64,000 nt of DNA from Candidatus Mcinerneyibacteriota bacterium (GCA_016937175.1 JAFGWL010000013.1:18821-82820); one strand, 5' to 3'. Shown: positions 1-55,752, numbered from the stretch's first letter. Numbers and translations: made by a program. The notes: a model not told the origin generated them from the sequence alone.

Positions 1-971
1 TGGCCTGACATCTCTCCTCCTAAAGGTGCGTCATCTTCTTTCATCTTGGCTTTGATAAGAGAGTGCCCGGCTTTCCACATCACCGGATTTCCCCCCTTTT
101 CTTTGATATATTCCACAAGCCCCTGGGAACATTTCACTTCAAAGACGATCTCAGATCCGGGCCTTCTTTTCAGGAGTTCACCGGCGTAGATCCCCAGAAG
201 CGTATCTCCGTAGAGAAGGTTTCCCTGAGCATCTACGACACCTATGCGGTCGACGTCGCCGTCAAAACCGATTCCGATATCATACTTCTCTTCAGTGACA
301 CGGCGGCGCAGTTCTTCAATGTTCTTTTCCACTGTAGGATCGGCGATATGGTTGGGAAACTTCCCGTCGGGCTTTTCAAAAAGAATATCCGCATCAAACC
401 CGCACTTTTCGAAAATCCGCCGGGCGTAGATCCCCGCTGAACCGTTTCCGCAGTCCAGAAGTACTTTCAGATCTCCTTTAAAGTTAAACGGGGCCGTCAG
501 ATCTTCCATATAACGTTCATCGATATCGGCCCTTTCAACCCCCCCCTCCCCTTCTTCAAAATCATCCTTTTCGATCAGGTGCAGAAGGCTCTGGATCTCT
601 TTTCCGTACAGGGCATCTACCCCTTTGCACATCTTGAAACCGTTATACTCAGGGGGGTTATGGGATGCTGTGATCATGACACCTCCCTGGGTTTCCAGAG
701 CTCCGATGGAGTAATAAAAGACCGGGGTAGCGACTTTCCCGATATCCAGCACGTCAAGGCCGGTACTTCTGATCCCTTCGATGAGAACGGGATTGATCCT
801 GGGGCCGCTGAGGCGGACATCATGTCCTACAGTGACTTTGCGGCCGCCCTGACGCTTGATCATGGTCCCGAAAGCCTGTCCGATAAGACGGACACTCTTA
901 TCGTCCAGGTCCTTGTCGGCCAGTCCTCTGATATCATATTCGCGAAAAATATACGGATTCACCTTGCTCAT
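1..971 (-). CDS. phosphomannomutase/phosphoglucomutase (alpha-D-phosphohexomutase family), 3'-end truncated by window edge
   Basis: Minus-strand ATG at 969-971 preceded by GGAGGAGGAG RBS; translation MSKVNPYIFREYDIRG...TASHNPPEYNGFK (phosphoserine loop) stays open to position 1, so no stop in window and it is absent from the ORF track. Confidence 0.8.
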   Translation of the reverse strand, partial: MSKVNPYIFREYDIRGLADKDLDDKSVRLIGQAFGTMIKRQGGRKVTVGHDVRLSGPRINPVLIEGIRSTGLDVLDIGKVATPVFYYSIGALETQGGVMITASHNPPEYNGFKMCKGVDALYGKEIQSLLHLIEKDDFEEGEGGVERADIDERYMEDLTAPFNFKGDLKVLLDCGNGSAGIYARRIFEKCGFDADILFEKPDGKFPNHIADPTVEKNIEELRRRVTEEKYDIGIGFDGDVDRIGVVDAQGNLLYGDTLLGIYAGELLKRRPGSEIVFEVKCSQGLVEYIKEKGGNPVMWKAGHSLIKAKMKEDDAPLGGEMSG

Positions 972-995
972 GATCTCCTCCTCCTTTCTGTTTTC

Positions 996-2369
996 TTAAA
1001 TATCATTGAATTCAGTGGCTACGGCCTTTTCCTCCGGCAGGATCATATTGAGGAAGACTCCGATGATGCCCGCCAGGCCGATTCCCGCCAGTGAAAGGGT
1101 GATCTGGAACCGCACAGCCACATAGGAGAGGATGACAAACAGAAGAGTCACCATAGTGATGAATATCGCACTTGAGATCCTGAAATCTGCTTTAGCTCTG
1201 CGCAGTTTTATAAGATGATAGAGAAGCCCTGCAAGGCTTGCCAGAAGGATTCCGTAGACCCCCTGCCAGGGGATGTCAAAAACGGCTCCGCCGATCCCGA
1301 TGACCAGGATTACAGCAACGATAATAAGTTTTTTGTTGGAATCGAGATTGGTCTTGTTTTGGATCATATTCTTCACACCGATGGCGGCGATGCTTCCGAA
1401 GAGGATGACCATGATCCCGCCCATGACGGGAGCAGGGATCGTCTTCAAGACAGCCCCTACCTTGCCGAAAAAGGCCAGAAGAATAGCCGTGACAGCTGCT
1501 ATGCGCATGACCACGGGGTTGAATACCCTGGTCAGGGCCACTGCCCCGGTGACTTCGGAATAGGTCGTGTTAGGCGGCCCGCCCAGAAAAGAGGCAGCTG
1601 TCGTGGCGATCCCGTCTCCGAACATGGTCCTGTGAAGGCCGGGCTTTTCATAGAATTTTTCCCCGGTGATGTCAGAGATCACCATGATGTCCCCTATATG
1701 TTCGATAGCCGGAGCAATGGCCACAGGGACGATGTAGAGTATAGCTTTCCAGTTAAACGCCGGCAAAGTAAAGGAAGGGACGGAAAACCAGGCGGCATTT
1801 TTGATGGGAGTGAAATCGATATCTCCGAATAGGATAGCAGCGGCATATCCGAAGGCGATTCCTGCTAAAATGGGAGTCAGTTTCATCACGCCCTTACCGA
1901 AAAGAGCAAAAATAACCGTCATACCGAAGGCGATACCGGCCAGGGCCATATTATGAGGGGCATCGGGGGTATTTTTGATCATGCCGATGGCTACAGGAGC
2001 CAGGCTCAGTCCGATGACCATGATCACGGGCCCGATGACATAGGAAGGCAGCAGTTTATCGATAAAGCCTATCCCCCGCCACTTGATGAAACCTCCGAAG
2101 AGCATCTTGACCAGTCCGGCGGCTGCCAGGCCGCAAAGTGTTCCTTTGATCCCGTAGAGTTTGGTAGCTACGAGAATAGGTGCAATATAGGCAAAAGACG
2201 AGGCCAGAAACACCGGGACTTTCCCACGGGTCACCAAATGAAAGATCAGGGTTCCAGCACCTGCCGTGAACAGGGCCACATTCGGGTCAAGGCCTGTGAT
2301 CAGCGGGACAAGGACCAGCGCCCCGAAGGCGACAAACAGCATTTGAACACCCACAATAATCTTTTTCAT
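996..2369 (-). CDS. uraA: uracil permease (NCS2 family)
   Basis: 457-aa multi-TM protein; N-terminal region GVQMLFVAFGALVLVPLITG...GKVPVFLASSFAYIAPIL closely parallels UraA/PyrP; sits directly downstream of upp. Confidence 0.85.
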   Translation of the reverse strand: MKKIIVGVQMLFVAFGALVLVPLITGLDPNVALFTAGAGTLIFHLVTRGKVPVFLASSFAYIAPILVATKLYGIKGTLCGLAAAGLVKMLFGGFIKWRGIGFIDKLLPSYVIGPVIMVIGLSLAPVAIGMIKNTPDAPHNMALAGIAFGMTVIFALFGKGVMKLTPILAGIAFGYAAAILFGDIDFTPIKNAAWFSVPSFTLPAFNWKAILYIVPVAIAPAIEHIGDIMVISDITGEKFYEKPGLHRTMFGDGIATTAASFLGGPPNTTYSEVTGAVALTRVFNPVVMRIAAVTAILLAFFGKVGAVLKTIPAPVMGGIMVILFGSIAAIGVKNMIQNKTNLDSNKKLIIVAVILVIGIGGAVFDIPWQGVYGILLASLAGLLYHLIKLRRAKADFRISSAIFITMVTLLFVILSYVAVRFQITLSLAGIGLAGIIGVFLNMILPEEKAVATEFNDI

Positions 2370-2382
2370 GCAGACTCCTTAT

Positions 2383-3003
2383 CTATTTAGTTCCGAACAG
2401 CCTGTCTCCGGCATCTCCCAGGCCGGGGACGATATATTTATGGTCATCCAGGTAAGAATCGATGTGTCCCGTAAAGATCTCGATGTCGGCATAAGCCTTT
2501 TCCACGGCTTCGATCCCCTCGGGGGCCGATATGATGGAAATGATCTTGATGCGGTCAAACCCTTTTTTGCGCAGAAGGGCGATGGTCGCTATGATGGATC
2601 CTCCCGTGGCCAGCATGGGGTCGATGATGACCACCAGGGGATTCACGGGATTGACAGGCAATTTTTCATAATACTCTACGGGCTGTTTTGTATCGGGGTC
2701 GCGGTAGATACCGACAAAGCCTACACGGGCATTGGGGAGAAGGTTCAGGATCCCTTCCAGCATCCCTACTCCGGCCCGGAGAATGGGAACGATGATAATA
2801 TCGTCTTTGATCTCGTAACCTTCCGTCTCTGTCAGAGGGGTCTCCAGGGACTTTTTCGACAAAGGCATATCCTTGAAGGCTTCATAGGTCAGAAGCATAG
2901 TGATCTCTGAAGATAATTCCCTGAACTCTTTCTGTTTTGTCCCCTTATCCCGGAGAAGAGAGAGTTTGTGCTGCAGCAGCGGGTGTCTGATTTCAACATG
3001 CAT
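2383..3003 (-). CDS. upp: uracil phosphoribosyltransferase
   Basis: 206 aa; motifs ILRAG, VIIDPMLATGGS (PRPP-binding), YIVPGLGDAGDRLFGT are typical of Upp. Confidence 0.95.
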   Translation of the reverse strand: MHVEIRHPLLQHKLSLLRDKGTKQKEFRELSSEITMLLTYEAFKDMPLSKKSLETPLTETEGYEIKDDIIIVPILRAGVGMLEGILNLLPNARVGFVGIYRDPDTKQPVEYYEKLPVNPVNPLVVIIDPMLATGGSIIATIALLRKKGFDRIKIISIISAPEGIEAVEKAYADIEIFTGHIDSYLDDHKYIVPGLGDAGDRLFGTK

Positions 3004-3021
3004 AAGATTCCCCCTTGGTTT

Positions 3022-4320
3022 TTACAGGATTTCAGCGGCCAGAGAGGCCAGCATACTTCGTTCGCTTTTGACCAGGGTAATATGGCCGAAGATCCTCTCC
3101 CCCTTGAAGCGCTGGATGAGGTAGGTCAGGCCGTTGGATTCCGCATCCAGGTAAGGATTGTCTATCTGGTGGGGGTCTCCGGTGAGGATGATCTTGCTGT
3201 TTTCCCCTGCCCGGCTTACGATGGTCTTGATCTCATGAGGGGTCAGGTTCTGAGCCTCATCTATGAGGATGAACTGGGAAGAGATACTCCTTCCACGGAT
3301 AAAGGTCAGGGCTTCCAGTTCGATTATATCAGATGTCAGGAAATAACCCCTGTTCTTTTTCCCCAGATGGTTGGCGTCTACGACAAAATCCAGGTTGTCG
3401 AAAATGGGCTCCATCCAGTTTTCCAGTTTATTCTCTTTGCTTCCCGGAAGGTAGCCGATGTCACGCCCCATGGGCATAATGGGACGCATGACGAGGACTT
3501 TTTTGTATTTTTGCTCCTCTGTCACCTTGTGGAGTCCGGAAGCCAGTGTAAGAAGAGTCTTTCCAGTCCCTGCCTGGCCTATCAGAGTCACCAGTTTGAC
3601 ATCGTCGTCCAGAAGAAGTTCCAGGGCATAGGATTGCTCACGGTTGAGGGGTTTGATTCCCCAGGGATAGATCCCCTGGCTCTTCAGAGGGACTAGCTTC
3701 TCCCCTTCACAGCGGGAAGCCAGAGATTCCCGTCCTTCGGCGGTGATATTGATCATCTGGTTCGGGTAGAAGAGGCCGGGAGGGCATTCCAGACTGCCTT
3801 TGCTGGAAAAGGATTCCCATTGGCCGGGGCCGGCTGTGTACTCCCCTGTCCCGGCATAGAGTTCATTGAGGTCGATCTTGGTGTGTTCATAGACTTCAGC
3901 CTTAATGGATAAAGCTTCGGCCTTGACCCGGGCGTTGATATCCATGGAGACAAAGACGACATCTTCGTACCCTTTGTCCTGAAGGTGTCTGGCTGCCATG
4001 ATGATGCGGTTGTCTGTGTTGCGAAGGTCGATCCCCTCAGGAAGGGGCGTCTCAAAATCAATGAGGATAAAGAGCTTTCCCCCCTCGTCATTGAGGGAGA
4101 TCCCGTTGAGGAGATTGTCGCCTTTGCTCAGAGAGTCGATAGAGCGGATGACGCGCCGTGCGTTTCGGCCCCGTTCGCCCAGGTCGGACTTGAAACTGTC
4201 CAGCTCTTCCAGGACATCGATGGGAATATAGACGAAATTTTCCTGGAAATTAAAGAGAGAATGAAAGTCATGCAGAAGCACATTCGTGTCAAGGACAAAA
4301 TGCTTGACCCGCTCCTTCAT
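3022..4320 (-). CDS. PIN-domain plus PhoH-like ATPase fusion (PhoH2 family)
   Basis: N-terminal PIN (VLDTNVLLHD...), central Walker A GQAGTGKT, PhoH signature ILTGDPHQID, Walker B FILIDEAQN. Confidence 0.85.
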   Translation of the reverse strand: MKERVKHFVLDTNVLLHDFHSLFNFQENFVYIPIDVLEELDSFKSDLGERGRNARRVIRSIDSLSKGDNLLNGISLNDEGGKLFILIDFETPLPEGIDLRNTDNRIIMAARHLQDKGYEDVVFVSMDINARVKAEALSIKAEVYEHTKIDLNELYAGTGEYTAGPGQWESFSSKGSLECPPGLFYPNQMINITAEGRESLASRCEGEKLVPLKSQGIYPWGIKPLNREQSYALELLLDDDVKLVTLIGQAGTGKTLLTLASGLHKVTEEQKYKKVLVMRPIMPMGRDIGYLPGSKENKLENWMEPIFDNLDFVVDANHLGKKNRGYFLTSDIIELEALTFIRGRSISSQFILIDEAQNLTPHEIKTIVSRAGENSKIILTGDPHQIDNPYLDAESNGLTYLIQRFKGERIFGHITLVKSERSMLASLAAEIL

Positions 4321-4322
4321 TC

Positions 4323-4736
4323 TCAGCGATACCTCTTTGTCATGACCAGCCGTGAGCCGTGGCTCCCCTGTTTTAATTTGACGTCATCCATATAGGTTTT
4401 GATGATAAAAAGCCCCCTGCCGTGGATTGCTGTCTCGTCGGGGAGCTGGAACGCCTCTTCATCCAGAAAGGCTCCCCCCCCTTCCGGGTTGGAATCTTCG
4501 ACAGAGAGAGAGATGATCTCTTTTTCCAGTGAGAGATCCACATAGATCGGCTTCAAAGCCTCTTCGTGATTTCCGTGGATGATGGCATTACTGGCCGCTT
4601 CCGCCAGGGAAGCGACCAGAGTGCCTATCAGGTCTGAGTTGATATCATTACGTTCAAGAAACAGCTCCACAGAGTCCAGTAGGGTTTCGAGGTAATCCAG
4701 AGATGACGGGAGCTGCAGTTTGATGAATTCAGCCAT
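4323..4736 (-). CDS. anti-sigma factor-like serine protein kinase (RsbW/SpoIIAB-type GHKL ATPase)
   Basis: 137 aa; N-box EAASNAIIHG, G-box HGRGLFIIK; immediately downstream of STAS gene (2-nt gap). Confidence 0.75.
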   Translation of the reverse strand: MAEFIKLQLPSSLDYLETLLDSVELFLERNDINSDLIGTLVASLAEAASNAIIHGNHEEALKPIYVDLSLEKEIISLSVEDSNPEGGGAFLDEEAFQLPDETAIHGRGLFIIKTYMDDVKLKQGSHGSRLVMTKRYR

Positions 4737-4738
4737 GT

Positions 4739-5083
4739 TCAGCGGGTCATATCTCTTAAAGCGTCGGCCTCCGAGTCGTAGCAGTCGAACAGAGTCAGGA
4801 GCTTTGTGATGGTCAAAAGGTCTTTGATACGCTGTGTGATCTTGACCAGGCTCATCTGCCCCTCTTTGGATTTAAGTGTCGTATACGCTGCGATGAGGAC
4901 TCCCAGGCCTGTGGAATCCATAAAAGGAACATCTTCAAAGTCGACGATGACCTTGACAAAGCCGTCTTCCACAGCCTTATTGATGGCCTCTTTGAGGGAC
5001 ATGACCTTTTCACCGCTGACGATCTTCCCGTGGGGGCGGATCATCACTATGTTATTGGATTTTTTCTCGACATCGATCTTCAT
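4739..5083 (-). CDS. STAS-domain anti-sigma factor antagonist (SpoIIAA/RsbV-like)
   Basis: 114 aa; conserved phosphorylatable-serine motif DFEDVPFMDSTGLGVL. Confidence 0.8.
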   Translation of the reverse strand: MKIDVEKKSNNIVMIRPHGKIVSGEKVMSLKEAINKAVEDGFVKVIVDFEDVPFMDSTGLGVLIAAYTTLKSKEGQMSLVKITQRIKDLLTITKLLTLFDCYDSEADALRDMTR

Positions 5084-5111
5084 GTAAATCCTCCTTTCAA
5101 TCTTTCACTAA

Positions 5112-5139
5112 ATTATAGCAGATGTTTTTTTCTGCGCAA
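5112..5139 (-). promoter_or_regulatory. sigma70-like promoter (TTGCGC-16-TATAAT) for STAS/RsbW/PhoH2/upp/uraA operon
   Basis: On minus strand: TTGCGC (5134-5139) ... 16 nt ... TATAAT (5112-5117), followed by GGAGG RBS and ATG of STAS gene at 5083. Confidence 0.45.
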
Positions 5140-5144
5140 TATCT

Positions 5145-5696
5145 TTATCCCGTTTCCGAAGGCGAAAAATCATCTTTACAGAGGGTGGCTGTAGAGAAAA
5201 AATGATGGAGTTCATATAAAAGATTTTCCGAAAAGAGGGGCCGTTTTTCCAGGATCTCTTCTTTTTCCCAGAATCGTGTTTCTTCGATCTCTTCCGGATC
5301 AAAACAGACGGTTTCTCCCCTGTAATCAGCGATGTAGAGGGAGACAAGCTCCCGCTCACGGGATGATTCCCAGATATAGCGCGTTTTGAAGAGAGCCTGC
5401 GACGGGAAAAACCCAATCTCTTCAAGAGACTCCCGTTTCAGGGCCTGGTAAAAGGTCTCACCCCAGGAGACATGGCCGCCTACGGCAGTATCCCATTTTC
5501 CAGGCTGGATCTGTTTCTTGCAGCTTCTCTTCTGTAAGAGAAAACGTCCCTCTTTATCAATGATCTGAAGATGGATAACGGGGTGCAGGATCTTTGTTCC
5601 GTCGTGACACTGGCCACGGGAGACTTTTTCCAGAGGCCTTCCCTCCGGTGAGCAGCGGATGAGCCATTCCATAGGCTCAATTCTAATGCGGGACAT
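5145..5696 (-). CDS. NUDIX hydrolase
   Basis: 183 aa; Nudix box GGHVSWGETFYQALKRESLEEIG matches GX5EX7REUXEEXGU. Confidence 0.8.
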   Translation of the reverse strand: MSRIRIEPMEWLIRCSPEGRPLEKVSRGQCHDGTKILHPVIHLQIIDKEGRFLLQKRSCKKQIQPGKWDTAVGGHVSWGETFYQALKRESLEEIGFFPSQALFKTRYIWESSRERELVSLYIADYRGETVCFDPEEIEETRFWEKEEILEKRPLFSENLLYELHHFFSTATLCKDDFSPSETG

Positions 5697-5733
5697 TCAA
5701 AAAAGCAATGTTTCCTTTCCTGAACGAATATCA

Positions 5734-5761
5734 TTGACACTGAAAAAAAGGGCTATATAAT
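5734..5761 (+). promoter_or_regulatory. consensus sigma70 promoter (TTGACA-16-TATAAT) for MFS transporter gene
   Basis: TTGACA at 5734-5739, TATAAT at 5756-5761, AAGGGA RBS, ATG at 5785. Confidence 0.5.
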
Positions 5762-5784
5762 TCGCAAAGCGAAAGGGATGAACT

Positions 5785-6987
5785 ATGTTACGAGAATATC
5801 TGGAAAAGATCAGGATGATCTCTCCCAATGCCCGTTTTTTCCTCGTAGGAGGGCTTTTTAACGGGCTCGGGATGTCTGTCTTCTCTCTTTTGTTTAACCT
5901 TTACTTGAAAGATTTCGGTTATTCGGAAACAGCGATCGGACATATTCTCTCTGCCGGAGCCCTGGGAGCCGCCGTGGTGGCTGTCCCGGCAGCCATGATC
6001 ATCGAGAGGTTTCATCTAAAGCATGTCCTCATCCTGGGAACCCTCCTCTCCTCCATCTCCTACGGGCTTCAGGTCTTTTTTCAGGATATCCAGTTTATCC
6101 TCTTTTTCTCCTTTACAGCGACCATGTTCATCACCGTCTACCGGGTCTCCGTGGCGCCGTTTTTTATGCGTAACAGCACTCCCGCCGAACGGATCCATCT
6201 TTTCAGCCTCAGTTATGCCATCATGATGTTCTCCCAGCTGCTGGGGTTCTTTCTCGGAGGATTTCTGCCTAAACTGACCATGGGGCTCGGCCTTGCCGGT
6301 TCTCTGACAGAAGCTTACCGCCTTTCTCTCTACACCTCCATTTTTCTGACCATGATATCCGTCATCCCCTTCCTTTCCATCGAACAGAGGCCTGTTCCCC
6401 GGATAAAAAGCAGATTCGCAGAAAGGATCCGGCGCTATAACTGGGGAATAATCCTCCGGCTGATGATCCCGAAGATCTTTGTCGGGATGGGCGCCGGGCT
6501 GGTCATCCCCTTTATGAATCTCTATTTCAAGATCGTCTTTAATCTTCAGGCAGAGACCATCGGCATCTATTTTTCCATTCTCCAGGTCTTTATGTTTTTC
6601 GGGATGCTCGCCGCTCCGTTTCTCACCAGACGTTTCGGGATGATCAAGAGCATCGTCCTCACAGAACTTTTGTCTGTTCCCTTTATGCTTACATTAGCCC
6701 TGACCCACAACCTGCCTCTGGCTGTGATGGCCTTTATCCTGAGGGGAACATTGATGAACATGAATATTCCCATAAGCAGCAATTTTGAGATGGAACTTGT
6801 ACGTGAGGCTGATCAACCCTTTACCAATGCGATTTCCATGTTGGCCTGGAACGGGGCATGGACAGTGAGCGCTCACTGGGGTGGGAGGATTATAGAGGAG
6901 TATTCCTTTTCTTTTTCCTTCTACATCACCATAGCACTCTATGTCATCTCAGCTTTGACCTACTACTTCTTCTTTAAAGACAAATAG
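5785..6987 (+). CDS. MFS transporter
   Basis: 400 aa, ~12 predicted hydrophobic helices; one of only two plus-strand genes. Confidence 0.7.
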   Translation: MLREYLEKIRMISPNARFFLVGGLFNGLGMSVFSLLFNLYLKDFGYSETAIGHILSAGALGAAVVAVPAAMIIERFHLKHVLILGTLLSSISYGLQVFFQDIQFILFFSFTATMFITVYRVSVAPFFMRNSTPAERIHLFSLSYAIMMFSQLLGFFLGGFLPKLTMGLGLAGSLTEAYRLSLYTSIFLTMISVIPFLSIEQRPVPRIKSRFAERIRRYNWGIILRLMIPKIFVGMGAGLVIPFMNLYFKIVFNLQAETIGIYFSILQVFMFFGMLAAPFLTRRFGMIKSIVLTELLSVPFMLTLALTHNLPLAVMAFILRGTLMNMNIPISSNFEMELVREADQPFTNAISMLAWNGAWTVSAHWGGRIIEEYSFSFSFYITIALYVISALTYYFFFKDK

Positions 6988-6990
6988 AGC

Positions 6991-9900
6991 TCAATTCCCT
7001 GTATACTTCATGGAACTCCAGTATGCCGGGTGAGGGAAGAAAAGGCGCAGTTCTTTTTTTGCTTTCCAGAGGGCCAGAGGCGCCGGAGTCCCTTTGTCAA
7101 GTTCCCGGTAGAAGTGTTTGAAGAGCATTCCCGTAGCCACATCAGAGATTCGCCAAAGCGAGGAGATGACCGCGCTCTCTTCGGTTTTCATAAAGGCTCT
7201 GTCCAGGGCTGTGACTTCATCCCCCTCCCCCAGGACTCCGACTCCCGAATCACAGGCACTCAGGACCGCCAGGCGGGCTTGAGGGGTGAGATTGCGTATC
7301 TCTTCCACGTCGAACCTGCCGTCCAGATGGCCGCCGGAAGCAAAGAGAAGATGGGAAAGAAGTGAATAATGGCGGTTAAAGTAGCCATGGCAGGCAAAAT
7401 GGATGATGTCATAATCCTTTGAAGCCATCTTTTCTCTGACCGCCTCTTCTGTGGCCGCTTTCCCTTTGAGGATATCGGTGATGGGCCCGAAGATAAAACG
7501 GATCTCTCCGGCTTCTTTCTGGGCAAAATAGAGTTCCAGGTCGGGATTGTCCAGGTCCGGGTTTCCCACAGCCAGGATCGAACGGAAAGGCCCTGCCCCG
7601 GAGTTTTCCCTGAGCATGAAAAGGTCCGGGATATAGGTCACCGGAAAACGGTCGATAAGGTACTCTCCCTTTTTTACAAGAAGAGAGAAAGGCAGATAGT
7701 TGAGGACCCCTGAAGGCGATACGACCAGGTGGCCTGACTTCGGCAGGTCAAAGGGCAGGAGAAGGTCTCCCAGACGCGATGACTCCCCGCGGATAACCTC
7801 TTCGCCGGCTGTTTCAGAGATCAGGTCGCGCAGACGGCTTACCTCTTCATTCAGGCGCTCTTTTCCCGCCGGGATGGAGTAACCGCTGATGGCTCCGTCC
7901 AGCCAGGACAGGAGAAGAGTCCGGTTTTCAAGGACAAGAAAAGACAGCACCAGGGTTCCCTGTGGAATCGTACCGGCGAAATCCCGCTCCCCGGGGATGT
8001 CAGCGGATCCCTTCTGATTCATGGCGATCTCAAGTTTTAAACGGTCCAGGTCTTCTTTTCTCGCTTCATATTCTCGCACGATGCTGGCGTCGTTTTTCAT
8101 GAGAAGGTCGAGATGGTAGAGCTCTTTTTTCAACTTATCAAGGGCCTCTTCCTCCTCAGGCTTCAGGGTCGATTGCCCCGCCCCCAGGGGATTATTGACC
8201 AGGAAGGCTATCCGCTTCACCTTTTCCGTCGTAAAAAAAGACTTCTCAAATAGTCCTGCATCAAAATAGGCTTCAGCCAGAGAGCGGTAGATACCCTGAT
8301 ATTTTTTCAATAGCTTGACTTGAAGCCCGGGAGAGTCCATATCCTCCGCCATGGCTTCCAAAAGGGAAACCGCCATTTCAAAGTGATCGATCCGGCCTGA
8401 AAAGAGACCGAGATGATTGGCGATCTCCAAAGCCGTGGATATATCCCTGATGTCAAGAGCTTCCTGCCTGGCTTTCTCCAGCATGGGTATATCCTTTGTC
8501 ACAAGCCCTGTGTAGTAGGAGGCATACATGGACTCTTCAGGAGTCAACTGGCCAAGATCCTTCATCTTCCCGAGATAAAGAAGCGCCTGCCCGGATGACC
8601 CGATCTGATAGGAGGTAATGGCCAGATGACGGTAAAGGCCTTTCAAAAGATAGCTGTTGTTCCGTGCCTGAGCTTCAGGAAGCTCACTTTCAAGAAGTGC
8701 CAGCGCTTCTTCCGGGCGTCCCGTTTCTCTCAGGATCAGGGATTTATTGATGATGAGAGCCGTCGTCTCCCCCACGATATTGTATCGGCGGGCTGTTTCC
8801 AGCGCGCCATCTATCTCTGAAAGAGCCAGATGCTCACTTCCCGTCTCCAGAAGAGCCAGGGAGAGAAGGTTTTTGAGAATGACTCGTTCAGCCTGGTTCT
8901 CTTTTTCCGGGAGGGATTGCAAAGTACGGCGGATGTAATCCAGACACTCATGATAGGCATTCGTCTTGAAGAGAAGATTGGCCATGCCGATGGCGGCATT
9001 GATCCTGATATTCCGCTCCGGAGATTCCGTGAGAGGCCGAAACAGAGCTTTAGCCGTCTCATAGTCCCCCTCTCTCAGGCTGATGGACCCCTTGAGGAGT
9101 TCCACAGTCTGCTGTTTGTCCCGGGAACGGACTTTTTCAAGAAGAGCCCTTGCCTTTTCATTTTCATTGAAGTACTTATAGTGGATCACAGCCCGTCTGA
9201 TCAGGCTTTCTTCCGTATTGACAAGGTTCAGAAGCTCTGAAGCTTCTTCGTATTGGCCGTTTTTTTCATAAAGAGAGGCCAGCTGGAGTGTCTGGTCACC
9301 GGGGATCCGCCCCTCTTTGTAGAGGGCTATGGCGCGGCTGTAAAATCCCGTTCTCTCATAGAGGATGGCCAGATTTTTCTCGTAAGCCGATTCAGGCAGC
9401 CCCTTCAGGGATATATACTCTTTCAACTCTTGGCGGATCAGTTCCGGGTCCCTCAGATGGTCTGTTGCGATGGTGATCATGAGGTAGAGGCGGCTTGTCA
9501 GGGTGGCTGTATCCTTTCGGGCCTTTAAAAGGGGGATCAAATTGGCCAATTCCCGGAAAGAACGGCTGTAATGCCCCTCTTTGTAATAGAGATAAGCCCT
9601 GCGGTCGATCTCACTTGTCTTTTCAGACAAAAAGGAAGCAAACTGTTTTTCTGTCATCTCCCTGTAGGAGAAGGTAATCTCCCCTATCTTGATTGTGTTA
9701 AGGCCTGCATAGATCAAAATATCTGTAAAAAGCCGCATAGAAATCGGAGAAGTAACCTCAGCTTCATCGACCCACAAGCCGTCCACCGTCAGGCCCTCCT
9801 TTAAAAACTGCAGCCCTGTATAGTCTCCTGCCTTACTGGCATAGGGATTGACCTGGTCACTCTCCAGGCTCCCGGAAAGACGGAAATAACCGCTGCTTTC

Positions 9901-12900
9901 CTCGATCAGGGGTTTCCCCTCTGACAAGGACCACGGCCGGGGCATATGACGTCCTTCATAGAGAAGATAGAGCTGGGAGAGCGAAAAGGCATTATAGGCG
10001 GAAGAGCGGAACGAATCAGCCTTGCGGTCTATGATAAAAGTGGCATCCGGCGGAATATCCTGCTCGATACGGGCTCTGTCCCGTGTAAGCAGAAGAAATT
10101 TCTTCTCCAGCCGGTAGGCGATGATATCATCGGGAGAGAGCATCCTGCGGAGGCTCTCCCCTTTCAGGAAGGGGATACCTGAGATGAGTCTGGCGCGTTG
10201 ATCCAGTTTCTCCGCGTAGCGGGATGCTTCTGCAAGGTCTTCACGGCCCAGATAGTAGAAATAGTTGCCCAGATTCACCGTATCCAGCTGGGAAAAGAGC
10301 TCAGGTTTATAGAAAAGGTAGCGTATCCTCTCTTCAAAGGACTCGAACCCGGACAAAAGGCGCACAAGACGATCGAAGTCGGTTTTCTCCGTTACGGCAT
10401 CTTCCAGAAGCTGAAAGGGAATATAGCCTTTGTCCCTGAAAAAGGCTGCAAACCGGGGAGCTGTTTTATCATCGGCCCGATTGATGGAATCAGATGCTTT
10501 TTCAAGGAATTCGAAACATGATTCGGGAGAAGATCTCCTTGTCAAAAGCGCTGCATCTATATTGATCAGAAAATCAAGAAAAACATCTTCTCCCTGCAGG
10601 CTCATAAGAGAAGAGAGGACGTCGTCTCCGAGAAACCGGTGCAGGAAAAGGTAAAAAAGACGCTTCATGGCGGGACTCACTCCGGGCCTTTGGAGGAGAG
10701 AACGGATCTTCTCATAGCGCCTGAAATCCTTCTCCTGTTTGTCTACAGCTTCCCTGAGGGTGGAGAAAGACTCCTCCCGGGGAGCCGTCTTCATAAAAGC
10801 CAGAATCATCATCCATTGATGAAGCTCCTGCAGATCCGGATCCCTGATGGCTTTCACCCGTTCCTCCATGCCTTCCAAAATTCCCAGGGGATCCGGAGAT
10901 GAGTCCATATTAAGGAAGAGTGATGAAAGCTCGTTGATCAGCAGCCCCTTCTGGAACTTGTTCTCACGTGAGATCTCCAAAGAGCGGTCCAGATACTCCT
11001 GAAGGAGCTGATCATTGCCGATACGATAATAGAGAGAAGCGAAATTATTGGTGATGACCATATCCGCATAGGGGCTGTCGGAAACAGCGAGTTTTTCTTT
11101 GAACAGGTCCACGGCTGCTGACATCTCCCCTTTGTTCATGGAGGCCGCAGCCATGATGGAAAGAAGAAGGTTCCGTTCCATCTCCGGGGTAAATCCCCGG
11201 TAAGCACCGGTCTCATGAGCTCCTGAGAGCGCCATGGCAATGCTTATATCCAGGAGGCCTCCCCCCTCTTTTTTGCGTGCCTGATCCCCCTGCAGAAGGT
11301 CCAACCCCTTTTTGGCATGAAAAAGAGCCTTGTCGGTATCGTCTCCCAACAGGGCATTGTAGGCGATATTCCTGTGATAAAGGACCTGCCGGACAGGGTC
11401 TTCTCCCGAAAGCCCCAGGGAAAGAGCCCTTTCAAAGTAACGGACAGATTCCAGATGTTTTCCTGAAAGAGAAGTGACCATTCCAAGATGTTTGAGAATA
11501 TAATCCTGCCCCCGGATATCCTGGTCTTCCAAATAGAGAGTCAAAAGTTTCCGGTCGAAGGAGGCTGTCTCTTCATATTGATTGAGATTGTAATGGATGG
11601 TGGATAAGCGGAGCAGATACTGTTTTTCCTCCTGACGTCCCTGATAAGGAGGTATCTTTCCTGACATGGCGGTATAATAGTCAAGCGCCTTGTCAAAGAT
11701 CCGGAGTTTGAAGTAGATGTTGGCCATGTTCTTTTCAAAATAGCCTCTGAGAAGTCTATCGTCTGTATCGGCCAGGGCCAGGCCTGTCTTGTACTCTCCC
11801 AGGGCCATTTCCAGGTATTGCCCCTGTCCAAGACGCTCCATCTCCTCGTAAAGCCATCCCAGGGTCAGATGCATGATCCCCTCCTGGGGACGACGGCCCA
11901 CAGAGCTTACGACCAGATCCAGGGCCTCTTCATAGGCTGCGAGGGTGAGGTCAGTTCTCCCTCGCACTTCGTAGGATGTCCCCACATAGGTCAGGGCAAA
12001 CCCGTAAAGGTACTGCATGAGAGGGTCTTCCGGATGATCCAGGTATAGGGCTTTATAACGCCCTGCTGTCTCCATGATATTTCCCAGGAGGTAATCCAGC
12101 CGGATCATGGCCCGGTTGATCTCCAGATCCCCGGGCAAGGCCTCCCTCAAAAGAAGGATTATCTTTCGTGCCTTCAGAAGGTCCTCTTCTTTTTCATACT
12201 CTTCAGCCACGGCTACAGCCCTGGACCTCAGAAAGGAGACGATATCTTTATAATAGACGCCGTTATAGCCTGATGTGAGAATATTTGAAAAGGCTGTTAT
12301 CCCTTCTTCTGTCTCATAACGGCTGTAGATCTCAAGCAGGATGGGATAGAGCATCTCCCGGTTCTCATCTTCCCGGCCCTTGACCTTATGCCACTCCTGA
12401 AGTGCGCCGGCATAGTCTCCGACTACAAGGAGAGAATCCATGAGTGCCCCTGTGGCTCCGTAAAAGAGAGTGGAGCCGGGAGGGTTCTCATCCCGTATCC
12501 GGCTCAGAATATTGAGGGAATAGCCGCTCCCGGCTTTGTATTCCGCCCTCACCTTCAGATAAAGGCTCACAGCTTCGGTCACGTAACGGTCACGGTAGAA
12601 GGCGTTATTGATTATCTTTTCCAGGAGTCCGAGTGCCGGGGTTTTCCGGCCTGTCATCAGCGCTGAGCGGGCAGCTAAGAGGGAAAGTTTGTTTTTCAGC
12701 CCGGTGGAGCGGATCCTGTTTTCCAGTGTAGAAAACGTCTCCAAAACAGCGCGATGCTCACCGGCTTCATAAAGACGGAAAATCAGGCGCTCAGACATCC
12801 CCTCTTCATAAAGAGAGGGAGCCCCGGCAATATCTTCTTTTGTGACCAGAGGTTTCAAAAGAGTCCCTTCGGCCAGGTAGGAAAATTTATCCGCCTCCCT

Positions 12901-13938
12901 TTCAGCCAGACGCGGGTATCCTGTTTCCAGGAGCTTATTGATATAATGTGTCAAAAAAAGAAGTGATTCGCGGGGCGAAAAGAGAGAGACGACTTTCTCG
13001 GCCAGAGGGAGGATCTCCTCTGGCTTGTCTGTCCGCTCCAGGTAATTGTTGTAATGGTAGACCGAAGAAAAACTGTAGGCAAGGTCTTCCCTGCTTTTAT
13101 AGGAGAGTTTCGGGCCCTTTGTAAAAAAAAGGGTATCACTTGAAAGCGTAAAACTATGAAGTCCTTCTGCTCCAAAGAGATAATGCTCTCTGCCCTCCTC
13201 CGATGAAGTGAGAAAGGCTGTCTGCAGATTCTCTTCCCTTCCGGGCACATCTTCTGCCAGTGGATAGGAGAGATAATAGAGTTTCCCTGTGACAGGATCA
13301 TAAAAAAGGTCTGATTTGGGCAAAGGAGAAGTCTTCAGAACCCGGATATTCCCGGTGGCGGTCTCCACGGACAGGATCTCTCTGTCTCTGAGAAGATAGA
13401 CCTCCCCTTCTCCAAAGGCAAGGTCTTCCGCGCCGGAGAACTCAGACCGATAGACCTCCTTCCCCTCACGGCTTAAGATGACAAGGTCTGTCTTTCCCTC
13501 TTCGCGCGACAGGGCTGCGATCAGGGAGCCGTCGGGAGAGAACCGGGGAGACATCTCCCGGACGAAAGGCCTGCCCAGATTTGTCATCTTTCCTCCCTGC
13601 AGAAGCAGGATGTCCCCCAGGACATCATACTGGTCCGAGGTGACAAGCAGGCTTCCCCTGCTGTCAGTATCTTCCAGGCTCTCTTCATAAGATGTTGAAA
13701 AAAGAGCCTCGCTCATTTGTGCGGTAAAATCATATTTGATGACTTGACGGTTGTTGTTGTCGATAACGGTATAGTAGAGACACCCTGTCTCCGGGCAGAA
13801 ACGCACAGATTCTATTCCCCCCAGCTGGACATCGATCTGCCCCTCAGGAGGCATCTCCTGCACGAGTCCGCTTTTGAGAGTACATCCTCCGGCTCCCAGA
13901 AGAATCAGGAGGAGAAACAGAAACGTTTTACGGTGCAC
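6991..13938 (-). CDS. giant (2315 aa) lipoprotein: TolB-like beta-propeller (PD40) N-terminus, very long TPR array, C-terminal CHAT (caspase-like) peptidase domain
   Basis: Signal peptide/lipobox MHRKTFLFLLLILLGAGGC; PD40-like RFSPDGSLIAALSREEGKTDLVIL; hundreds of residues of TPR-like repeats; C-terminal CHAT signature DYDIIHFACHGYF...RLAVLSACDSGVG...ISSLWRISD; GTG start at 13936-13938 with GGAAGGAGAAGA RBS, overlapping stop of upstream gene. Confidence 0.8.
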   Translation of the reverse strand: MHRKTFLFLLLILLGAGGCTLKSGLVQEMPPEGQIDVQLGGIESVRFCPETGCLYYTVIDNNNRQVIKYDFTAQMSEALFSTSYEESLEDTDSRGSLLVTSDQYDVLGDILLLQGGKMTNLGRPFVREMSPRFSPDGSLIAALSREEGKTDLVILSREGKEVYRSEFSGAEDLAFGEGEVYLLRDREILSVETATGNIRVLKTSPLPKSDLFYDPVTGKLYYLSYPLAEDVPGREENLQTAFLTSSEEGREHYLFGAEGLHSFTLSSDTLFFTKGPKLSYKSREDLAYSFSSVYHYNNYLERTDKPEEILPLAEKVVSLFSPRESLLFLTHYINKLLETGYPRLAEREADKFSYLAEGTLLKPLVTKEDIAGAPSLYEEGMSERLIFRLYEAGEHRAVLETFSTLENRIRSTGLKNKLSLLAARSALMTGRKTPALGLLEKIINNAFYRDRYVTEAVSLYLKVRAEYKAGSGYSLNILSRIRDENPPGSTLFYGATGALMDSLLVVGDYAGALQEWHKVKGREDENREMLYPILLEIYSRYETEEGITAFSNILTSGYNGVYYKDIVSFLRSRAVAVAEEYEKEEDLLKARKIILLLREALPGDLEINRAMIRLDYLLGNIMETAGRYKALYLDHPEDPLMQYLYGFALTYVGTSYEVRGRTDLTLAAYEEALDLVVSSVGRRPQEGIMHLTLGWLYEEMERLGQGQYLEMALGEYKTGLALADTDDRLLRGYFEKNMANIYFKLRIFDKALDYYTAMSGKIPPYQGRQEEKQYLLRLSTIHYNLNQYEETASFDRKLLTLYLEDQDIRGQDYILKHLGMVTSLSGKHLESVRYFERALSLGLSGEDPVRQVLYHRNIAYNALLGDDTDKALFHAKKGLDLLQGDQARKKEGGGLLDISIAMALSGAHETGAYRGFTPEMERNLLLSIMAAASMNKGEMSAAVDLFKEKLAVSDSPYADMVITNNFASLYYRIGNDQLLQEYLDRSLEISRENKFQKGLLINELSSLFLNMDSSPDPLGILEGMEERVKAIRDPDLQELHQWMMILAFMKTAPREESFSTLREAVDKQEKDFRRYEKIRSLLQRPGVSPAMKRLFYLFLHRFLGDDVLSSLMSLQGEDVFLDFLINIDAALLTRRSSPESCFEFLEKASDSINRADDKTAPRFAAFFRDKGYIPFQLLEDAVTEKTDFDRLVRLLSGFESFEERIRYLFYKPELFSQLDTVNLGNYFYYLGREDLAEASRYAEKLDQRARLISGIPFLKGESLRRMLSPDDIIAYRLEKKFLLLTRDRARIEQDIPPDATFIIDRKADSFRSSAYNAFSLSQLYLLYEGRHMPRPWSLSEGKPLIEESSGYFRLSGSLESDQVNPYASKAGDYTGLQFLKEGLTVDGLWVDEAEVTSPISMRLFTDILIYAGLNTIKIGEITFSYREMTEKQFASFLSEKTSEIDRRAYLYYKEGHYSRSFRELANLIPLLKARKDTATLTSRLYLMITIATDHLRDPELIRQELKEYISLKGLPESAYEKNLAILYERTGFYSRAIALYKEGRIPGDQTLQLASLYEKNGQYEEASELLNLVNTEESLIRRAVIHYKYFNENEKARALLEKVRSRDKQQTVELLKGSISLREGDYETAKALFRPLTESPERNIRINAAIGMANLLFKTNAYHECLDYIRRTLQSLPEKENQAERVILKNLLSLALLETGSEHLALSEIDGALETARRYNIVGETTALIINKSLILRETGRPEEALALLESELPEAQARNNSYLLKGLYRHLAITSYQIGSSGQALLYLGKMKDLGQLTPEESMYASYYTGLVTKDIPMLEKARQEALDIRDISTALEIANHLGLFSGRIDHFEMAVSLLEAMAEDMDSPGLQVKLLKKYQGIYRSLAEAYFDAGLFEKSFFTTEKVKRIAFLVNNPLGAGQSTLKPEEEEALDKLKKELYHLDLLMKNDASIVREYEARKEDLDRLKLEIAMNQKGSADIPGERDFAGTIPQGTLVLSFLVLENRTLLLSWLDGAISGYSIPAGKERLNEEVSRLRDLISETAGEEVIRGESSRLGDLLLPFDLPKSGHLVVSPSGVLNYLPFSLLVKKGEYLIDRFPVTYIPDLFMLRENSGAGPFRSILAVGNPDLDNPDLELYFAQKEAGEIRFIFGPITDILKGKAATEEAVREKMASKDYDIIHFACHGYFNRHYSLLSHLLFASGGHLDGRFDVEEIRNLTPQARLAVLSACDSGVGVLGEGDEVTALDRAFMKTEESAVISSLWRISDVATGMLFKHFYRELDKGTPAPLALWKAKKELRLFFPHPAYWSSMKYTGN

Positions 13939-22056: not shown

Positions 22057-25000
22057 TCAGCTGTTGATAAGGAGGAAAGGCCGGATTACCCCGGCTCTGA
22101 TCTGTGTCCGCCCGCTGATGCTGCCTACCTCTCCTGAATACTTCTCAAGGAAAGCGCGTGTCTCTTTGTTGAATGAACCCTGTCCGAATCCCCTGGTAAG
22201 GAGAAGGGTGAACCCGAGCCCCTCATCCCCGGTGATGGCGCTTCCCAGCTCTTCCCCCATGAAAGTGCGCCAGTCAGAGAGGACCATGGAAGGAGCGACA
22301 AGCCCTCTTACGCTTTTTTCCCGGCAGGCCTTAAGATGGTCCAGCGTTACTTCTCCGTTCAAAAAGAGGATCTTCCCCTCTTTTTCGCTTACTTCCCAGG
22401 GTACGACTTCTCCCCAATGCTCATGCCCGAACCCTATGCGCCCCGTCAGACGGTGTCCTTTTGCCTCTATAATGACTTCATAGCCCGGAAGGATCTCTTT
22501 GACACGCCCCCGGACAAAGGCATAGGTGATGAGAGGTTTGAAATCATACTGTATCGTCACACTTCCCTCTTCATGGTCTATTTTTTTCACGATTCCTGTA
22601 ACCGGGGCTTTCAGGCCGGGAGATTCCCGCATATAAAGAGTCTCTGAAGACAGTTTAACAAGGTGCATTCCCTTTTCGATGAAATCACCCTCTTTTACAC
22701 TAAGATATCCCTTCATATGCCGCGGCCTGATATTGAGAAGAGAAGCCAGGGGGATTTTCACAGGTTTTGTGGAGTAGTCCTGGATCTCCTCAAGGACAAT
22801 GATCCCGTTCTCCTCTACAGCCAGGACACGTCCGCGGACAGGAGTCTTCAAAACATGATGTTTTTTCCCGATCTTTCCGTCAAAAACTGTCTGGTTGGTG
22901 GAGACGATGTCGTTTTCCCGAACCGTGACACCTGCCAGAAGCTCCTCTTTTTCAGCCTTGATGTCATATCCCAGAAGCCTTCTGAGGTCTACCATGAAGA
23001 TCCGCGGAGGAGTCATATTGTTTTCTCCCACGGGGGTCTCAGGGCGGACTTCGTCTCCTGCTTTTACCAGGACCTCCCCTTTGTAGGGCATCCTGCGGGG
23101 GACATCAGCCTTGATATCTTGCTCCAAAGAGACATGTTCGAGAGGAGCCTCCTCGCCGGGTTCTGCCTCCCCCTGATAAAGAGTGACATAGGAAGTGAAT
23201 GGTTTCCCGTTGAAGAAGCGCCCCCGCCCCCGGCAGTCTATGACCACGGGAAGAGCGGAATCGATAGTGACTTCGTTACCGTTTTTGTCCAGAGAGACGT
23301 TTTTGGCCGGGATAACTCTGGCTTTGAGCCCCTGGGGATAAAAGAGCAGAGAACCCCATGCGACTTCCGTAGAGACAGCCCCCTCTTCCCGGATGAGAGT
23401 CAGGGCGCTCTTTTTTTCATCGTAGACCTTCCCGGTGGGAGCCAAAACATAAGCTATCTCCCTGAGGCTCGACTCGACAAAGGCATCCAGGGCTTCGGTG
23501 GGTGTGAGCGTACTTAGGATACCGAAATGGGGGCTGCGGAAGCCCTTGTCTATTGCCAGAGTCGTGATCCCTTCAGGGAGGAATCCGTCCAGAAGCATAT
23601 GAACAGCTTCAGCATCTTGGCGGGTATGGGAAAGGACGCCTCCGGATCCGATAAACAGGTCGATATCGGCAAACTGAAAGGATTTCGGTGTATCTCTTAT
23701 TGAAAGGATCTCAGAGAAGGGATCGAAATTCTCGTCCCGTCTCCTCCGGTCAAGAAACCCTACACGCAGAATCCGGAAATTAGTCTTCTGATGCTGCTCC
23801 CAGGCAAGACGCAGGCCCAGAACAGCTAAGTGCTGTTCCACTTCGATCTCCCACTCTTCTTGAGGAAGGCGGGTGGGATAGAGCATCTTGTTTCCGCAGT
23901 ACCTGCGTGCCGCCTCAGCGCTTAGCGGTGCTTCCAGGCGACCCGCCACCGCCTCTTCCCCGGCCTCTTTGAAGATCTGGCCTATTGAATAACTCATCCC
24001 GATATTGGCTGCTACGGTCCGGTTATATTCTCCGATGATATTGGAGAACAGGTCGGTGGTGGCTCCTCCCATATCGGCCATGACTACGTTTTTGCGTTTC
24101 ATCTCACCATAGAGAGAGAGGATCTTCTCTACACCTACAGGAGTCGGCAGGATATGGTCTCCGGCCCATTTTTTCAGCTTGGGGTATCCCGGAGCCTTTT
24201 CCATGACATGGTTGAGGAAGAGATGATGAATAGAGGCCTGGGCGGGAAAGATATTGGTCTTTTCAAGCGAAGGGCGGAGGTTCTCTGTCACATGGCAATT
24301 AAATCCCTGCAGAGTCTTCAGAACCAGTCCACGGGCATTGGTATTTCCCGCATAGACAACAGGAGGCCTTTCCTGACGGGAATATTTCATAGTAGGCTCC
24401 GAAAGAGCCAGTATCTCGGCCAGACGCACAACTCCGGCGATATTCCCCCCGTCGATCCCCCCAGCCATAAGGATCATGTCGGGATGGATGTCGTAGAGAA
24501 AACGCATGCGCTCTATCACAGGAAGCTCGTCATCGATGGTGAAACGCCTGAGGATGACTCCTCCCGCTCCATTAGCCGCCTGAGACGCCACTTCTCCGGT
24601 GTCGGTGGAAGAGACGCCGAAGACAGCTATCTGAAGTCCCCCGCCGGCTGAACTGGTGGCCAGCATCGGGATTTGCGGCTTTCCGGCTGATGTGACGATC
24701 TTCTTCCCCTTGTACCGGGAATCGATCTCCCTTAGTGCCGCAGTTACCCCTATGGTGACATCATTATCCGGGTCTTCCACTGTGGTTTTTACATAGGAAT
24801 CGGCTGCCACCACCCATCTATTGCCCTCTTTAGTCAAAAGGACAGCTTTTGTGGCTGTACTGCCTATATCGACAACGGCAAAGGCCTCCTCCTTCTCCAG
24901 AGGGTCTCGCCCCCCGGATCCGAAAAGGTCATCCAGAGAGCGGCCGAAGATCTGGGCCATCTTCAGGCAGATCTTCAAAGAAGGGTTGTACCTTCCTCCT

Positions 25001-25104
25001 TCGATAAGGGCTACAGTCTGACGGCTGATGCCCAGTTCCGCTGCCAGGTTTTCCTGGGTATATCCCGCCGCTTCACGATATTTCCTGATCCGCTCACCGT
25101 CCAT
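22057..25104 (-). CDS. 1015-aa fusion: XRE-family HTH, ASKHA (actin-like) ATPase domain of GlmL/MutL family, C-terminal ~440-aa extension with barrel-sandwich-like repeats
   Basis: N-terminal [41 protein letters not shown]; phosphate-1 [20 protein letters not shown], phosphate-2 [15 protein letters not shown]; C-terminal repeats like [20 protein letters not shown] at 25102-25104 with GGAGG RBS. Confidence 0.7.
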
Positions 25105-39495: not shown

Positions 39496-39766
39496 CGACT
39501 TCCTCGGAAATGGTCTTGTAGAGAGAAGAAGCCTTCTGTTTTGAGACGTTTTTGGTCTGAGGTATCTCGCTGATCTCCACCACCAGGATCTTGTTATAGG
39601 CCTGGATCCTGATCCTGTCTCCCTCGTGTACTTCAGAGGCAGCCTTCAAAGTGACAAAACCGTCGGGCTCCTGAAGCCGCCAGACATGTCCCGCTTCACA
39701 GACTTCTTTGGCGGTGGAACGTTGTTTTAAAATCCTTGATAGCTGCAAAAACTTATCAGTTCTCAT
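39485..39766 (-). CDS. S4-domain RNA-binding protein
   Basis: 93 aa; MRTDKFLQLSRILKQRSTAKEVCEAGHV is S4-like. Confidence 0.65.
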   Translation of the reverse strand: MRTDKFLQLSRILKQRSTAKEVCEAGHVWRLQEPDGFVTLKAASEVHEGDRIRIQAYNKILVVEISEIPQTKNVSKQKASSLYKTISEEVVEG

Positions 39767-41010: not shown

Positions 41011-41013
41011 TCC

Positions 41014-55694: not shown

Positions 55695-55752
55695 CTTAAA
55701 AATCTCCATAACTCAGTGTAGCACAGATCGGAAGTTTTTCATCAGGGGATAT

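Follow-up and report, generated by a model that had tools for sequence, protein, structure and literature searches.

Within a 64,000-nucleotide (nt) stretch of the genome of Candidatus Mcinerneyibacteriota bacterium (GCA_016937175.1 JAFGWL010000013.1:18821-82820; hereafter the window), we have characterized a gene block that encodes a STAS-domain protein, an RsbW-like serine kinase of the GHKL type and PhoH2, a fusion of PIN and PhoH domains (Table 1). A STAS/kinase two-protein phospho-switch normally controls a sigma factor. Here the kinase gene is followed by phoH2, and we tentatively propose that the block is a dedicated partner-switching module whose output would be the co-transcribed PhoH2 RNA helicase/ribonuclease (RNase). 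A functional link of some kind between the STAS/kinase pair and PhoH2 is likely, because an uninterrupted, coupled and promoter-led gene order persists while the flanking genes and the base composition change, and because the kinase clade never occurs without PhoH2. A first-pass annotation of the window had reported these three genes, with phoH2 beginning 2 nt downstream of the kinase gene and followed by upp and uraA; all five genes are found in those places, on the minus strand, and the gap measures 2 nt.

Wherever the contig of a family member extends far enough, the STAS, kinase and PhoH2 genes follow one another in this order without interruption. The conservation of this order in relatives, which the first-pass annotation had put forward as a test of its proposal, is thus observed in at least eight lineages, with nothing inserted. 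When the kinase was used as the anchor, STAS lay upstream and PhoH2 downstream in every readable contig (L001-L007, L173, L174, L175 and L177), and the kinase clade was found nowhere without PhoH2. With STAS as the anchor, the triad was present at each of the nine metagenome loci that reach 65% STAS identity, and PhoH2 was near none of the 71 metagenome loci with STAS identity of 46% or less. With PhoH2 as the anchor, the pair occurred in only 4 of the best 80 genome loci, those at 67-95% PhoH2 identity (L013-L016); it also stood beside relatives at 62% and 58% PhoH2 identity (L008-L011), and a relative at 53% identity was without it. Across these lineages, identity to the window proteins falls as low as 63-66% for STAS, 35-38% for the kinase, 53-60% for PhoH2, 59% for a downstream phosphoglucomutase/phosphomannomutase (PGM/PMM) and 56% for the upp product, and the G+C content (GC) of the locus ranges from 26 to 51%. 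The upstream neighbours differ, comprising a Nudix gene, a response regulator with only a REC domain, a gamma-glutamyltranspeptidase gene or a divergent energy-coupling factor (ECF)-transporter gene (at least four contexts); the block has thus stayed intact amid changing surroundings. Beyond PhoH2, the presence of upp, uraA and a GGDEF gene varies from lineage to lineage, upp being missing in L001, L010, L174 and L177 and uraA in L001, L008, L010 and L177. The Nudix gene stands beside STAS only in the closest lineages (L001, L004 and L006), and we therefore rejected it as a part of the system, for example in RNA decapping ahead of a 5'-3' helicase. GGDEF genes recur near STAS/kinase modules, both in the window (34145-35791, minus strand, REC-GGDEF) and elsewhere (L010 8738-10372; L104 2574-4328); the GGDEF gene lies between the PGM and OsmC genes in a low-GC lineage, and the order is GGDEF-kinase-STAS in the nearest outgroup.

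The junctions within the block are tight. In the window, 2 nt separate STAS from the kinase gene and the kinase gene from phoH2, 18 nt separate phoH2 from upp and 13 nt separate upp from uraA. Among the relatives, the STAS-kinase junction varies between an 8-nt overlap and a 13-nt gap in every lineage, and the kinase-PhoH2 junction does so in all lineages except one; these junctions look translationally coupled. The end of the Nudix gene is 61 nt from STAS on the same strand, and this gap contains both a promoter and a Shine-Dalgarno sequence. The promoter consists of a -35 element TTGCGC (5139-5134), a 16-nt spacer and an extended -10 element TGcTATAAT (5120-5112). The first-pass annotation had read this promoter as TTGCGC-16-TATAAT, and its -10 part stands as a perfect extended form that is conserved, whereas the -35 part is weak; because it matches TTGACA at just three of six positions, the promoter was not listed by a consensus scan. 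An element of the form TTG(N~17-19)TGnTAnnnT is present 25-35 nt ahead of the STAS ATG in every lineage, regardless of the upstream gene, and the Shine-Dalgarno motif 'GAAAGGAGGA' ahead of STAS is likewise kept in all of them. As the extended -10 promoter and the Shine-Dalgarno motif are both conserved before STAS, STAS is taken as the first gene of the unit, which probably extends past uraA into the PGM/PMM gene. A leader RNA, riboswitch or PyrR-type attenuator was rejected, as no Rfam match was found within window positions 1-8000 at E<=0.1 and the intergenic gaps are too short.

The STAS protein matches PF01740 (E=1.7e-19, 70 bits, cut-off 22.6) and the TIGR00377 model 'anti-sigma factor antagonist' (71.6 bits, cut-off 53.45), and its best solved relatives in the Protein Data Bank are SpoIIAA and RsbV. 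The motif D56-S57-T58-G59 ('FMDSTGLG'), which aligns with 'MDSSGLG' of SpoIIAA, is invariant in all eight STAS family members, and Ser57 and 51 further columns are invariant in the family. The conserved DSTG serine reported by the first-pass annotation is thus Ser57, in a domain that scores above the curated cut-offs. By sequence, the protein appears to be a single-domain anti-sigma-factor antagonist of the RsbV/SpoIIAA type, with Ser57 as its putative phosphorylation site.

The RsbW-like protein matches PF13581 (HATPase_c_2) with 73.8 bits (cut-off 27.4), and its best solved relatives by sequence are SpoIIAB (E~1e-10) and RsbW (E=4e-8). In its AlphaFold model, the mean predicted local distance difference test (pLDDT) score is 69.8 and is low in the ATP lid; a Foldseek search with this model gave RsbW 6M37 as the top match (template modelling (TM) scores 0.73/0.87) and SpoIIAB 1TID/1L0O (TM 0.73-0.87 overall), and SiaB-SiaC was present among the fold matches. 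The first-pass annotation had described a GHKL kinase with N and G boxes. This description holds for the N box (E46, N50 and H54-G55-N56) and the G2 box (G106-R107-G108), which are intact and invariant in the family, but not for the G1 box, which reads E80-D81-S-N83 instead of DxGxG, with the adenine-binding Asp81 retained. All members of the clade carry E-D-[S/C/E]-[N/S] there, and 139 of the 159 sequences compared read DxG at this position (156 nearest relatives and the window protein, together with reference sequences of SpoIIAB and RsbW), such that the DxN form is essentially a clade signature. Because the N-box Asn and the G1 Asp, which are held to be indispensable for Mg-ATP binding (PMC9137472), are both kept, we treat the protein as a probable kinase, putatively acting on the STAS serine, with an odd lid hinge. 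Judged by the NCBIfam equivalog models, it is no orthologue of SpoIIAB or RsbW, as the cut-offs are missed by ~100 bits (TIGR01925, 40 bits against 135; NF003144, 38 against 145; TIGR01924, 34 against 155). Its relatives formed 8 clusters in the first search and 20 clusters with a family profile. When 5.8 billion proteins were searched, scores fell from 141 to 110 bits at the edge of the family, and an exhaustive HMMER search of 1.84 billion representatives returned only five clusters with at least 112 bits, the next one scoring 83 bits. Because this kinase clade is small and sharply bounded, it looks like a specialized module and not a generic RsbW.

In PhoH2, a PIN_4 domain spans residues 8-145 (E=4.8e-28) and a PhoH domain residues 222-418 (E=7.9e-47). 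Its best NCBIfam match is NF053827 'RNA 5'-3' helicase PhoH2', which is covered over the full length (PhoH2 6-432 to model 2-423 of 427) at 269 bits, the cut-off of 680 not being reached. The residues D11, E38/E39, D103 and D127, a Walker A motif GQAGTGKT and a Walker B motif LIDEAQ can be read from the sequence; we take the roles of the acidic PIN residues and of the Walker motifs to be those generally known for PIN and P-loop proteins. PhoH2 is thus predicted to be a PIN_4 nuclease domain fused to a PhoH P-loop (superfamily 1 (SF1)-like) RNA helicase/ATPase. All three genes of the triad are under purifying selection, with ratios of non-synonymous to synonymous substitution (dN/dS) of ~0.03 for STAS, 0.02-0.03 for PhoH2 and 0.10-0.17 for the kinase. 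STAS is therefore constrained to the same degree as PhoH2, whereas the kinase is much less conserved than either and evolves 3-5 times faster.

The first-pass annotation had remarked that no sigma factor gene follows the kinase, and the absence extends further than the operon: neither a Sigma70 domain nor a SpoIIE/PP2C domain occurs within the window, and no sigma factor or PP2C gene lies within ~5-6 kb of the module in any relative. Like RsbV-RsbW-sigmaB and SpoIIAA-SpoIIAB-sigmaF of Bacillus, the locus has a STAS gene with a DS(T/S)G motif directly upstream of a GHKL HATPase_c_2 kinase of ~140 amino acids (aa); unlike them, it has PhoH2 and not a sigma factor as the third gene, a DxN form of the G1 box and no linked PP2C gene. 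Its composition is also reminiscent of SypA/SypE of Vibrio fischeri, BtrU/V/W of Bordetella, RbaV of Rhodobacter and SiaB/SiaC-SiaD of Pseudomonas, in which a STAS or STAS-like protein and a Ser kinase have an output other than sigma release. None of these systems is linked to PIN/PhoH, and they are usually encoded with their output locus and a phosphatase, whereas the present locus has STAS and kinase only, with an RNA helicase/RNase as the candidate output. We found no paper describing a STAS/RsbW-PhoH2 cluster.

On the basis of these features, we propose the following scheme. The extended -10 promoter would drive, in this order, STAS, the RsbW-like kinase, PhoH2, upp and uraA where present, and PGM/PMM. 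The RsbW-like protein would bind PhoH2 and keep it inactive, as RsbW does sigma-B. Unphosphorylated STAS would compete for the kinase and thereby free PhoH2, which could then unwind and cleave its target RNAs, and phosphorylation of STAS Ser57 by the kinase with ATP would reset the switch. The input may come from a PP2C phosphatase encoded elsewhere, from the ATP/ADP ratio or from both. The protein-protein contacts, the kinase activity and the direction of control in this scheme are what we infer, and the notion that PhoH2 is controlled by phosphorylation or sequestration is pure conjecture. In a sub-variant, unphosphorylated STAS itself would contact PhoH2, as SypA-type STAS proteins do with their targets, and the kinase would only set the phosphorylation state of STAS; we slightly favour this sub-variant because STAS is as conserved as PhoH2, far above the kinase. 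The targets of the STAS-only proteins SypA, BtrV and RbaV are non-sigma or unknown, and post-transcriptional control has been suggested for BtrV (PMC8256260).

The scheme has a parallel in the PhoAT-PhoH2 systems of mycobacteria and Thermobispora, which resemble type II toxin-antitoxin systems. PhoAT is a small protein that is encoded directly upstream of PhoH2, is co-transcribed with it, and binds and neutralizes the mycobacterial PhoH2 (PMC4826407). The PIN+PhoH architecture and the presence of a gene directly upstream are shared with our locus. Mycobacterial PhoH2 also has a functional connection to a partner-switch regulon, that of SigF in Mycobacterium smegmatis (PMC7390352). In contrast to PhoAT-PhoH2, the upstream gene here encodes a GHKL RsbW-like protein and is itself preceded by STAS, and PhoH2 scores below the NCBIfam equivalog cut-off. 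The slot that PhoAT occupies is filled by the kinase gene, with gaps of 2 nt to overlaps of 8 nt, and a kinase gene that overlaps or abuts phoH2 would hold the position of an antitoxin gene before a PIN toxin. With slightly more reserve than for the module itself, we suggest that the partner switch may have been rewired from a sigma factor to RNA degradation, so that the RsbW-like or STAS protein would serve as a reversible, signal-controlled 'antitoxin' of PhoH2; dephosphorylation of STAS or a fall in ATP would then switch on RNA unwinding and cleavage.

Several observations weigh against a dedicated PhoH2 switch. The STAS-kinase-PhoH2 association is clade-specific and belongs to one rare uncultured lineage. 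At 76 other PhoH2 loci (50% identity or less; Holophagae, Planctomycetota, Spirochaetes, Myxococcota, Elusimicrobia and others), family hidden Markov models (HMMs) found no STAS or kinase gene within ~5 kb, the STAS HMM being sensitive enough to pick up STAS proteins at 27-43% identity, and a Pfam scan of 61 upstream open reading frames (ORFs) of 70-400 aa at PhoH2 loci outside the clade found neither. Neither the top 120 PhoH2 matches nor the top 150 kinase matches included a protein in which STAS or HATPase_c_2 is fused to PIN or PhoH. A clade-specific adaptation of PhoH2 was considered and rejected, as the PhoH2 of the clade has no indels and just six clade-specific substitutions, all of them subtle, such as R225L. 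The G1 box of the kinase is atypical, and no phosphatase is linked to the module. It is common for a STAS/kinase pair to have no sigma gene beside it, and such pairs mostly act on distant targets. The nearest outgroup STAS/kinase genes are in GGDEF-kinase-STAS clusters or in clusters of STAS, histidine kinase, REC/SpoIIE, kinase and STAS genes, again with no sigma gene; therefore, the lack of an adjacent sigma gene is not unusual in itself. One low-GC (27-28%) lineage has an AT-rich spacer of ~100 nt between kinase and PhoH2, which may hold a second promoter. Finally, every relative whose contig reaches far enough has the PGM/PMM gene downstream of PhoH2. Because this gene is equally conserved, PhoH2 cannot be identified as the target from synteny alone. 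The suggestion of the first-pass annotation that the pair controls PhoH2 instead of a sigma factor is thus sustained as far as the conserved order and the lack of a nearby sigma gene are concerned, but the link is confined to the clade and PGM is linked equally well.

The family of the partial PGM/PMM gene in the window was assigned from its full-length orthologues, and its ORF is 59-84% identical to the PGM of the relatives. PGM is found downstream of PhoH2 at none of the 76 loci outside the clade; one of them, L045, has a PGM-like ORF upstream of PhoH2. OsmC is often retained downstream together with PGM. The PGM/PMM gene is linked downstream as faithfully as STAS and the kinase are upstream, and an enzyme with an active-site phosphoserine is a notable neighbour for a Ser kinase.

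The main rival explanation is that this is an ordinary orphan pair: the RsbW-like protein would capture a sigma factor or other regulator whose gene lies elsewhere, and PhoH2, upp, uraA and PGM would merely be co-expressed with the pair, in an operon that answers to stress or nutrients and may belong to the same regulon. Sigma-less pairs are common and the nearest outgroups sit in such clusters, the fold and key residues of the kinase are of the RsbW/SpoIIAB type, PGM is conserved in the block as well as PhoH2 is, and the PhoH2 of the clade is unremarkable; all of this would be expected of an orphan pair. However, such a pair does not lead one to expect that nothing would be inserted between kinase and PhoH2 in at least eight lineages while upp, uraA and GGDEF genes vary downstream, that the stop and start codons of the two genes would overlap or abut, that the kinase clade would be found nowhere without PhoH2, or that the 64 kb analysed would hold no sigma gene. 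We therefore consider the orphan pair unlikely, although it has to be taken seriously.

Control may also run in reverse, with PhoH2 acting on its own polycistronic mRNA or on transcripts of the partner-switch regulon and so tuning the level of STAS and kinase. In Mycobacterium smegmatis, deletion of phoH2 raises the SigF regulon, the sole down-regulated gene being that of a STAS antagonist. The enzyme breaks down sigF and rsbW-sigF RNA in vitro, and it was proposed to act on these mRNAs (PMC7390352). RNase toxin genes, namely mazEF, are located directly upstream of the sigB partner-switch operon (rsb-sigB) in Listeria and Staphylococcus and are co-transcribed with it (PMC5308263, PMC4885055), so that there, too, the genes of a partner switch are physically linked to an endoribonuclease module; that arrangement differs in that the RNase precedes the Rsb genes and has its own antitoxin, a sigma factor is present and MazF is not a PIN-PhoH protein. 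Reversed control would leave the adjacency and the translational coupling unexplained, the operon has no conserved RNA structure or Rfam element, and the mycobacterial evidence is modest and was obtained in vitro; we regard this explanation as improbable. About equally improbable is the absence of any functional link, the block being simply the inherited synteny of a moderately deep single clade. The association is indeed absent everywhere outside the clade, and the downstream PGM and often OsmC are kept too. However, the triad has stayed contiguous through at least three replacements of the upstream flank and through insertions or losses of genes downstream of PhoH2, and the overlapping junctions and the promoter have been kept while GC drifted between 26 and 51%.

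Least probable of all is a second substrate of the kinase, namely PhoH2 or the PGM/PMM mutase, with STAS competing as a pseudo-substrate or serving as a regulator: the genes for the kinase, PhoH2 and PGM are invariant neighbours, PGM/PMM enzymes need an active-site phosphoserine, and the N-box Glu/Asn and G1 Asp for ATP binding are invariant (PMC9137472), but no conserved clade-specific gain of Ser or Thr was seen in PhoH2 and the idea is speculative. RsbW-type kinases are not known to phosphorylate anything but their STAS partner, which also argues against it.

The first-pass annotation had further raised the possibility of a defence switch, which the genomic context does not bear out. In PADLOC, STAS and the kinase had no match and PhoH2 matched only generic SF1-helicase motifs; viral contigs lack the STAS family. 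With no PADLOC system, no viral contig and a housekeeping context, we rejected a defence or phage origin. The window is core chromosome of a diderm bacterium, with genes for LptE, LolA, SurA-like and BamB-like proteins, LepA, FtsK, a class I aminoacyl-tRNA synthetase and aromatic amino-acid biosynthesis, and it contains no tRNA gene. The NCBI labels of the relatives conflict with one another ('Bacillota'/Firmicutes, 'Candidatus Aminicenantes' and 'uncultured bacterium'); given the diderm markers, the lineage is probably mislabelled or unclassified.

Other features of the window were recorded in passing. A perfect TTGACA-16-TATAAT promoter (5734-5761, plus strand) precedes a divergent major facilitator superfamily (MFS) transporter gene (5785-6987) that stands back-to-back with the Nudix gene. 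A 2315-aa protein (6991-13938, minus strand) with many TPR repeats and a C-terminal CHAT (caspase-like) domain is conserved beside the locus in the closest lineages (L001 and L004), with only weak BovA/TPR matches in PADLOC. A 1015-aa protein (22057-25104, minus strand) has the unusual architecture of an N-terminal HTH_3 (XRE-type) domain and a PF13941 'MutL' domain, and a 302-aa protein (28360-29268, minus strand) has a HisKA phospho-acceptor domain with HATPase_c undetectable. Two gene fusions, both on the minus strand, join a shikimate dehydrogenase N-domain to shikimate kinase (54414-55709) and a CDP-alcohol phosphatidyltransferase to the phosphatidylglycerophosphatase PgpA (57792-58796).

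Table 1. Features of the putative partner-switching locus, its neighbours and selected relatives (window positions unless a lineage or locus is named).
Feature	Position	Strand	Remarks
PGM/PMM-family phosphohexomutase (PgmG-like), 5' part	1-971	minus	ORF runs from 971 to 1 and leaves the window
PgmG-like phosphoglucomutase/phosphomannomutase of relatives	L006 9766-11151; L010 7339-8748
uraA-like NCS2 uracil/nucleobase permease	996-2369	minus	PF00860 E=5.8e-88; TIGR00801 above cut-off; variable passenger
upp, uracil phosphoribosyltransferase	2383-3003	minus	NF001097 273 bits, above cut-off; variable operon passenger
PhoH2 (PIN_4+PhoH fusion)	3022-4320	minus	432 aa; Pfam
RsbW/SpoIIAB-like GHKL (HATPase_c_2) kinase	4323-4736	minus	137 aa; PF13581
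~100-nt kinase-PhoH2 spacer of the low-GC lineage	L010 5897-6000; L101 4088-4186; L174 6421-6525
STAS anti-sigma antagonist	4739-5083	minus	114 aa; PF01740, TIGR00377
Shine-Dalgarno AAGGAGG	5090-5096	minus	6 nt ahead of the STAS ATG
Promoter-like element upstream of STAS	5112-5139	minus	read from the sequence
Nudix hydrolase, upstream neighbour	5145-5696	minus	PF00293 E=3.6e-17; outside the conserved core
SurA-like	39763-42809		outer-membrane biogenesis (window 38-63 kb)
BamB-like	47436-48668		outer-membrane biogenesis (window 38-63 kb)
LptE	52295-52777		outer-membrane biogenesis (window 38-63 kb)
SLH+TPR protein	55791-56885		diderm marker
LolA	60085-60687		outer-membrane biogenesis (window 38-63 kb)

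In summary, PhoH2 is spread over bacteria and archaea, and its physiological role and control are largely unexplained; partner-switching modules are very common, many of them without a known output. A STAS/kinase pair that is always joined to phoH2 provides a concrete hypothesis for both. If PhoH2 is not the output, the locus would be one more orphan Rsb pair in a conserved housekeeping operon. If it is, the module would be the first partner switch to act on a ribonuclease/helicase, and the PhoH2 family would gain its first defined regulator outside mycobacteria. The logic of partner switching would then reach from transcription to RNA turnover, in keeping with the mycobacterial connection between PhoH2 and SigF.

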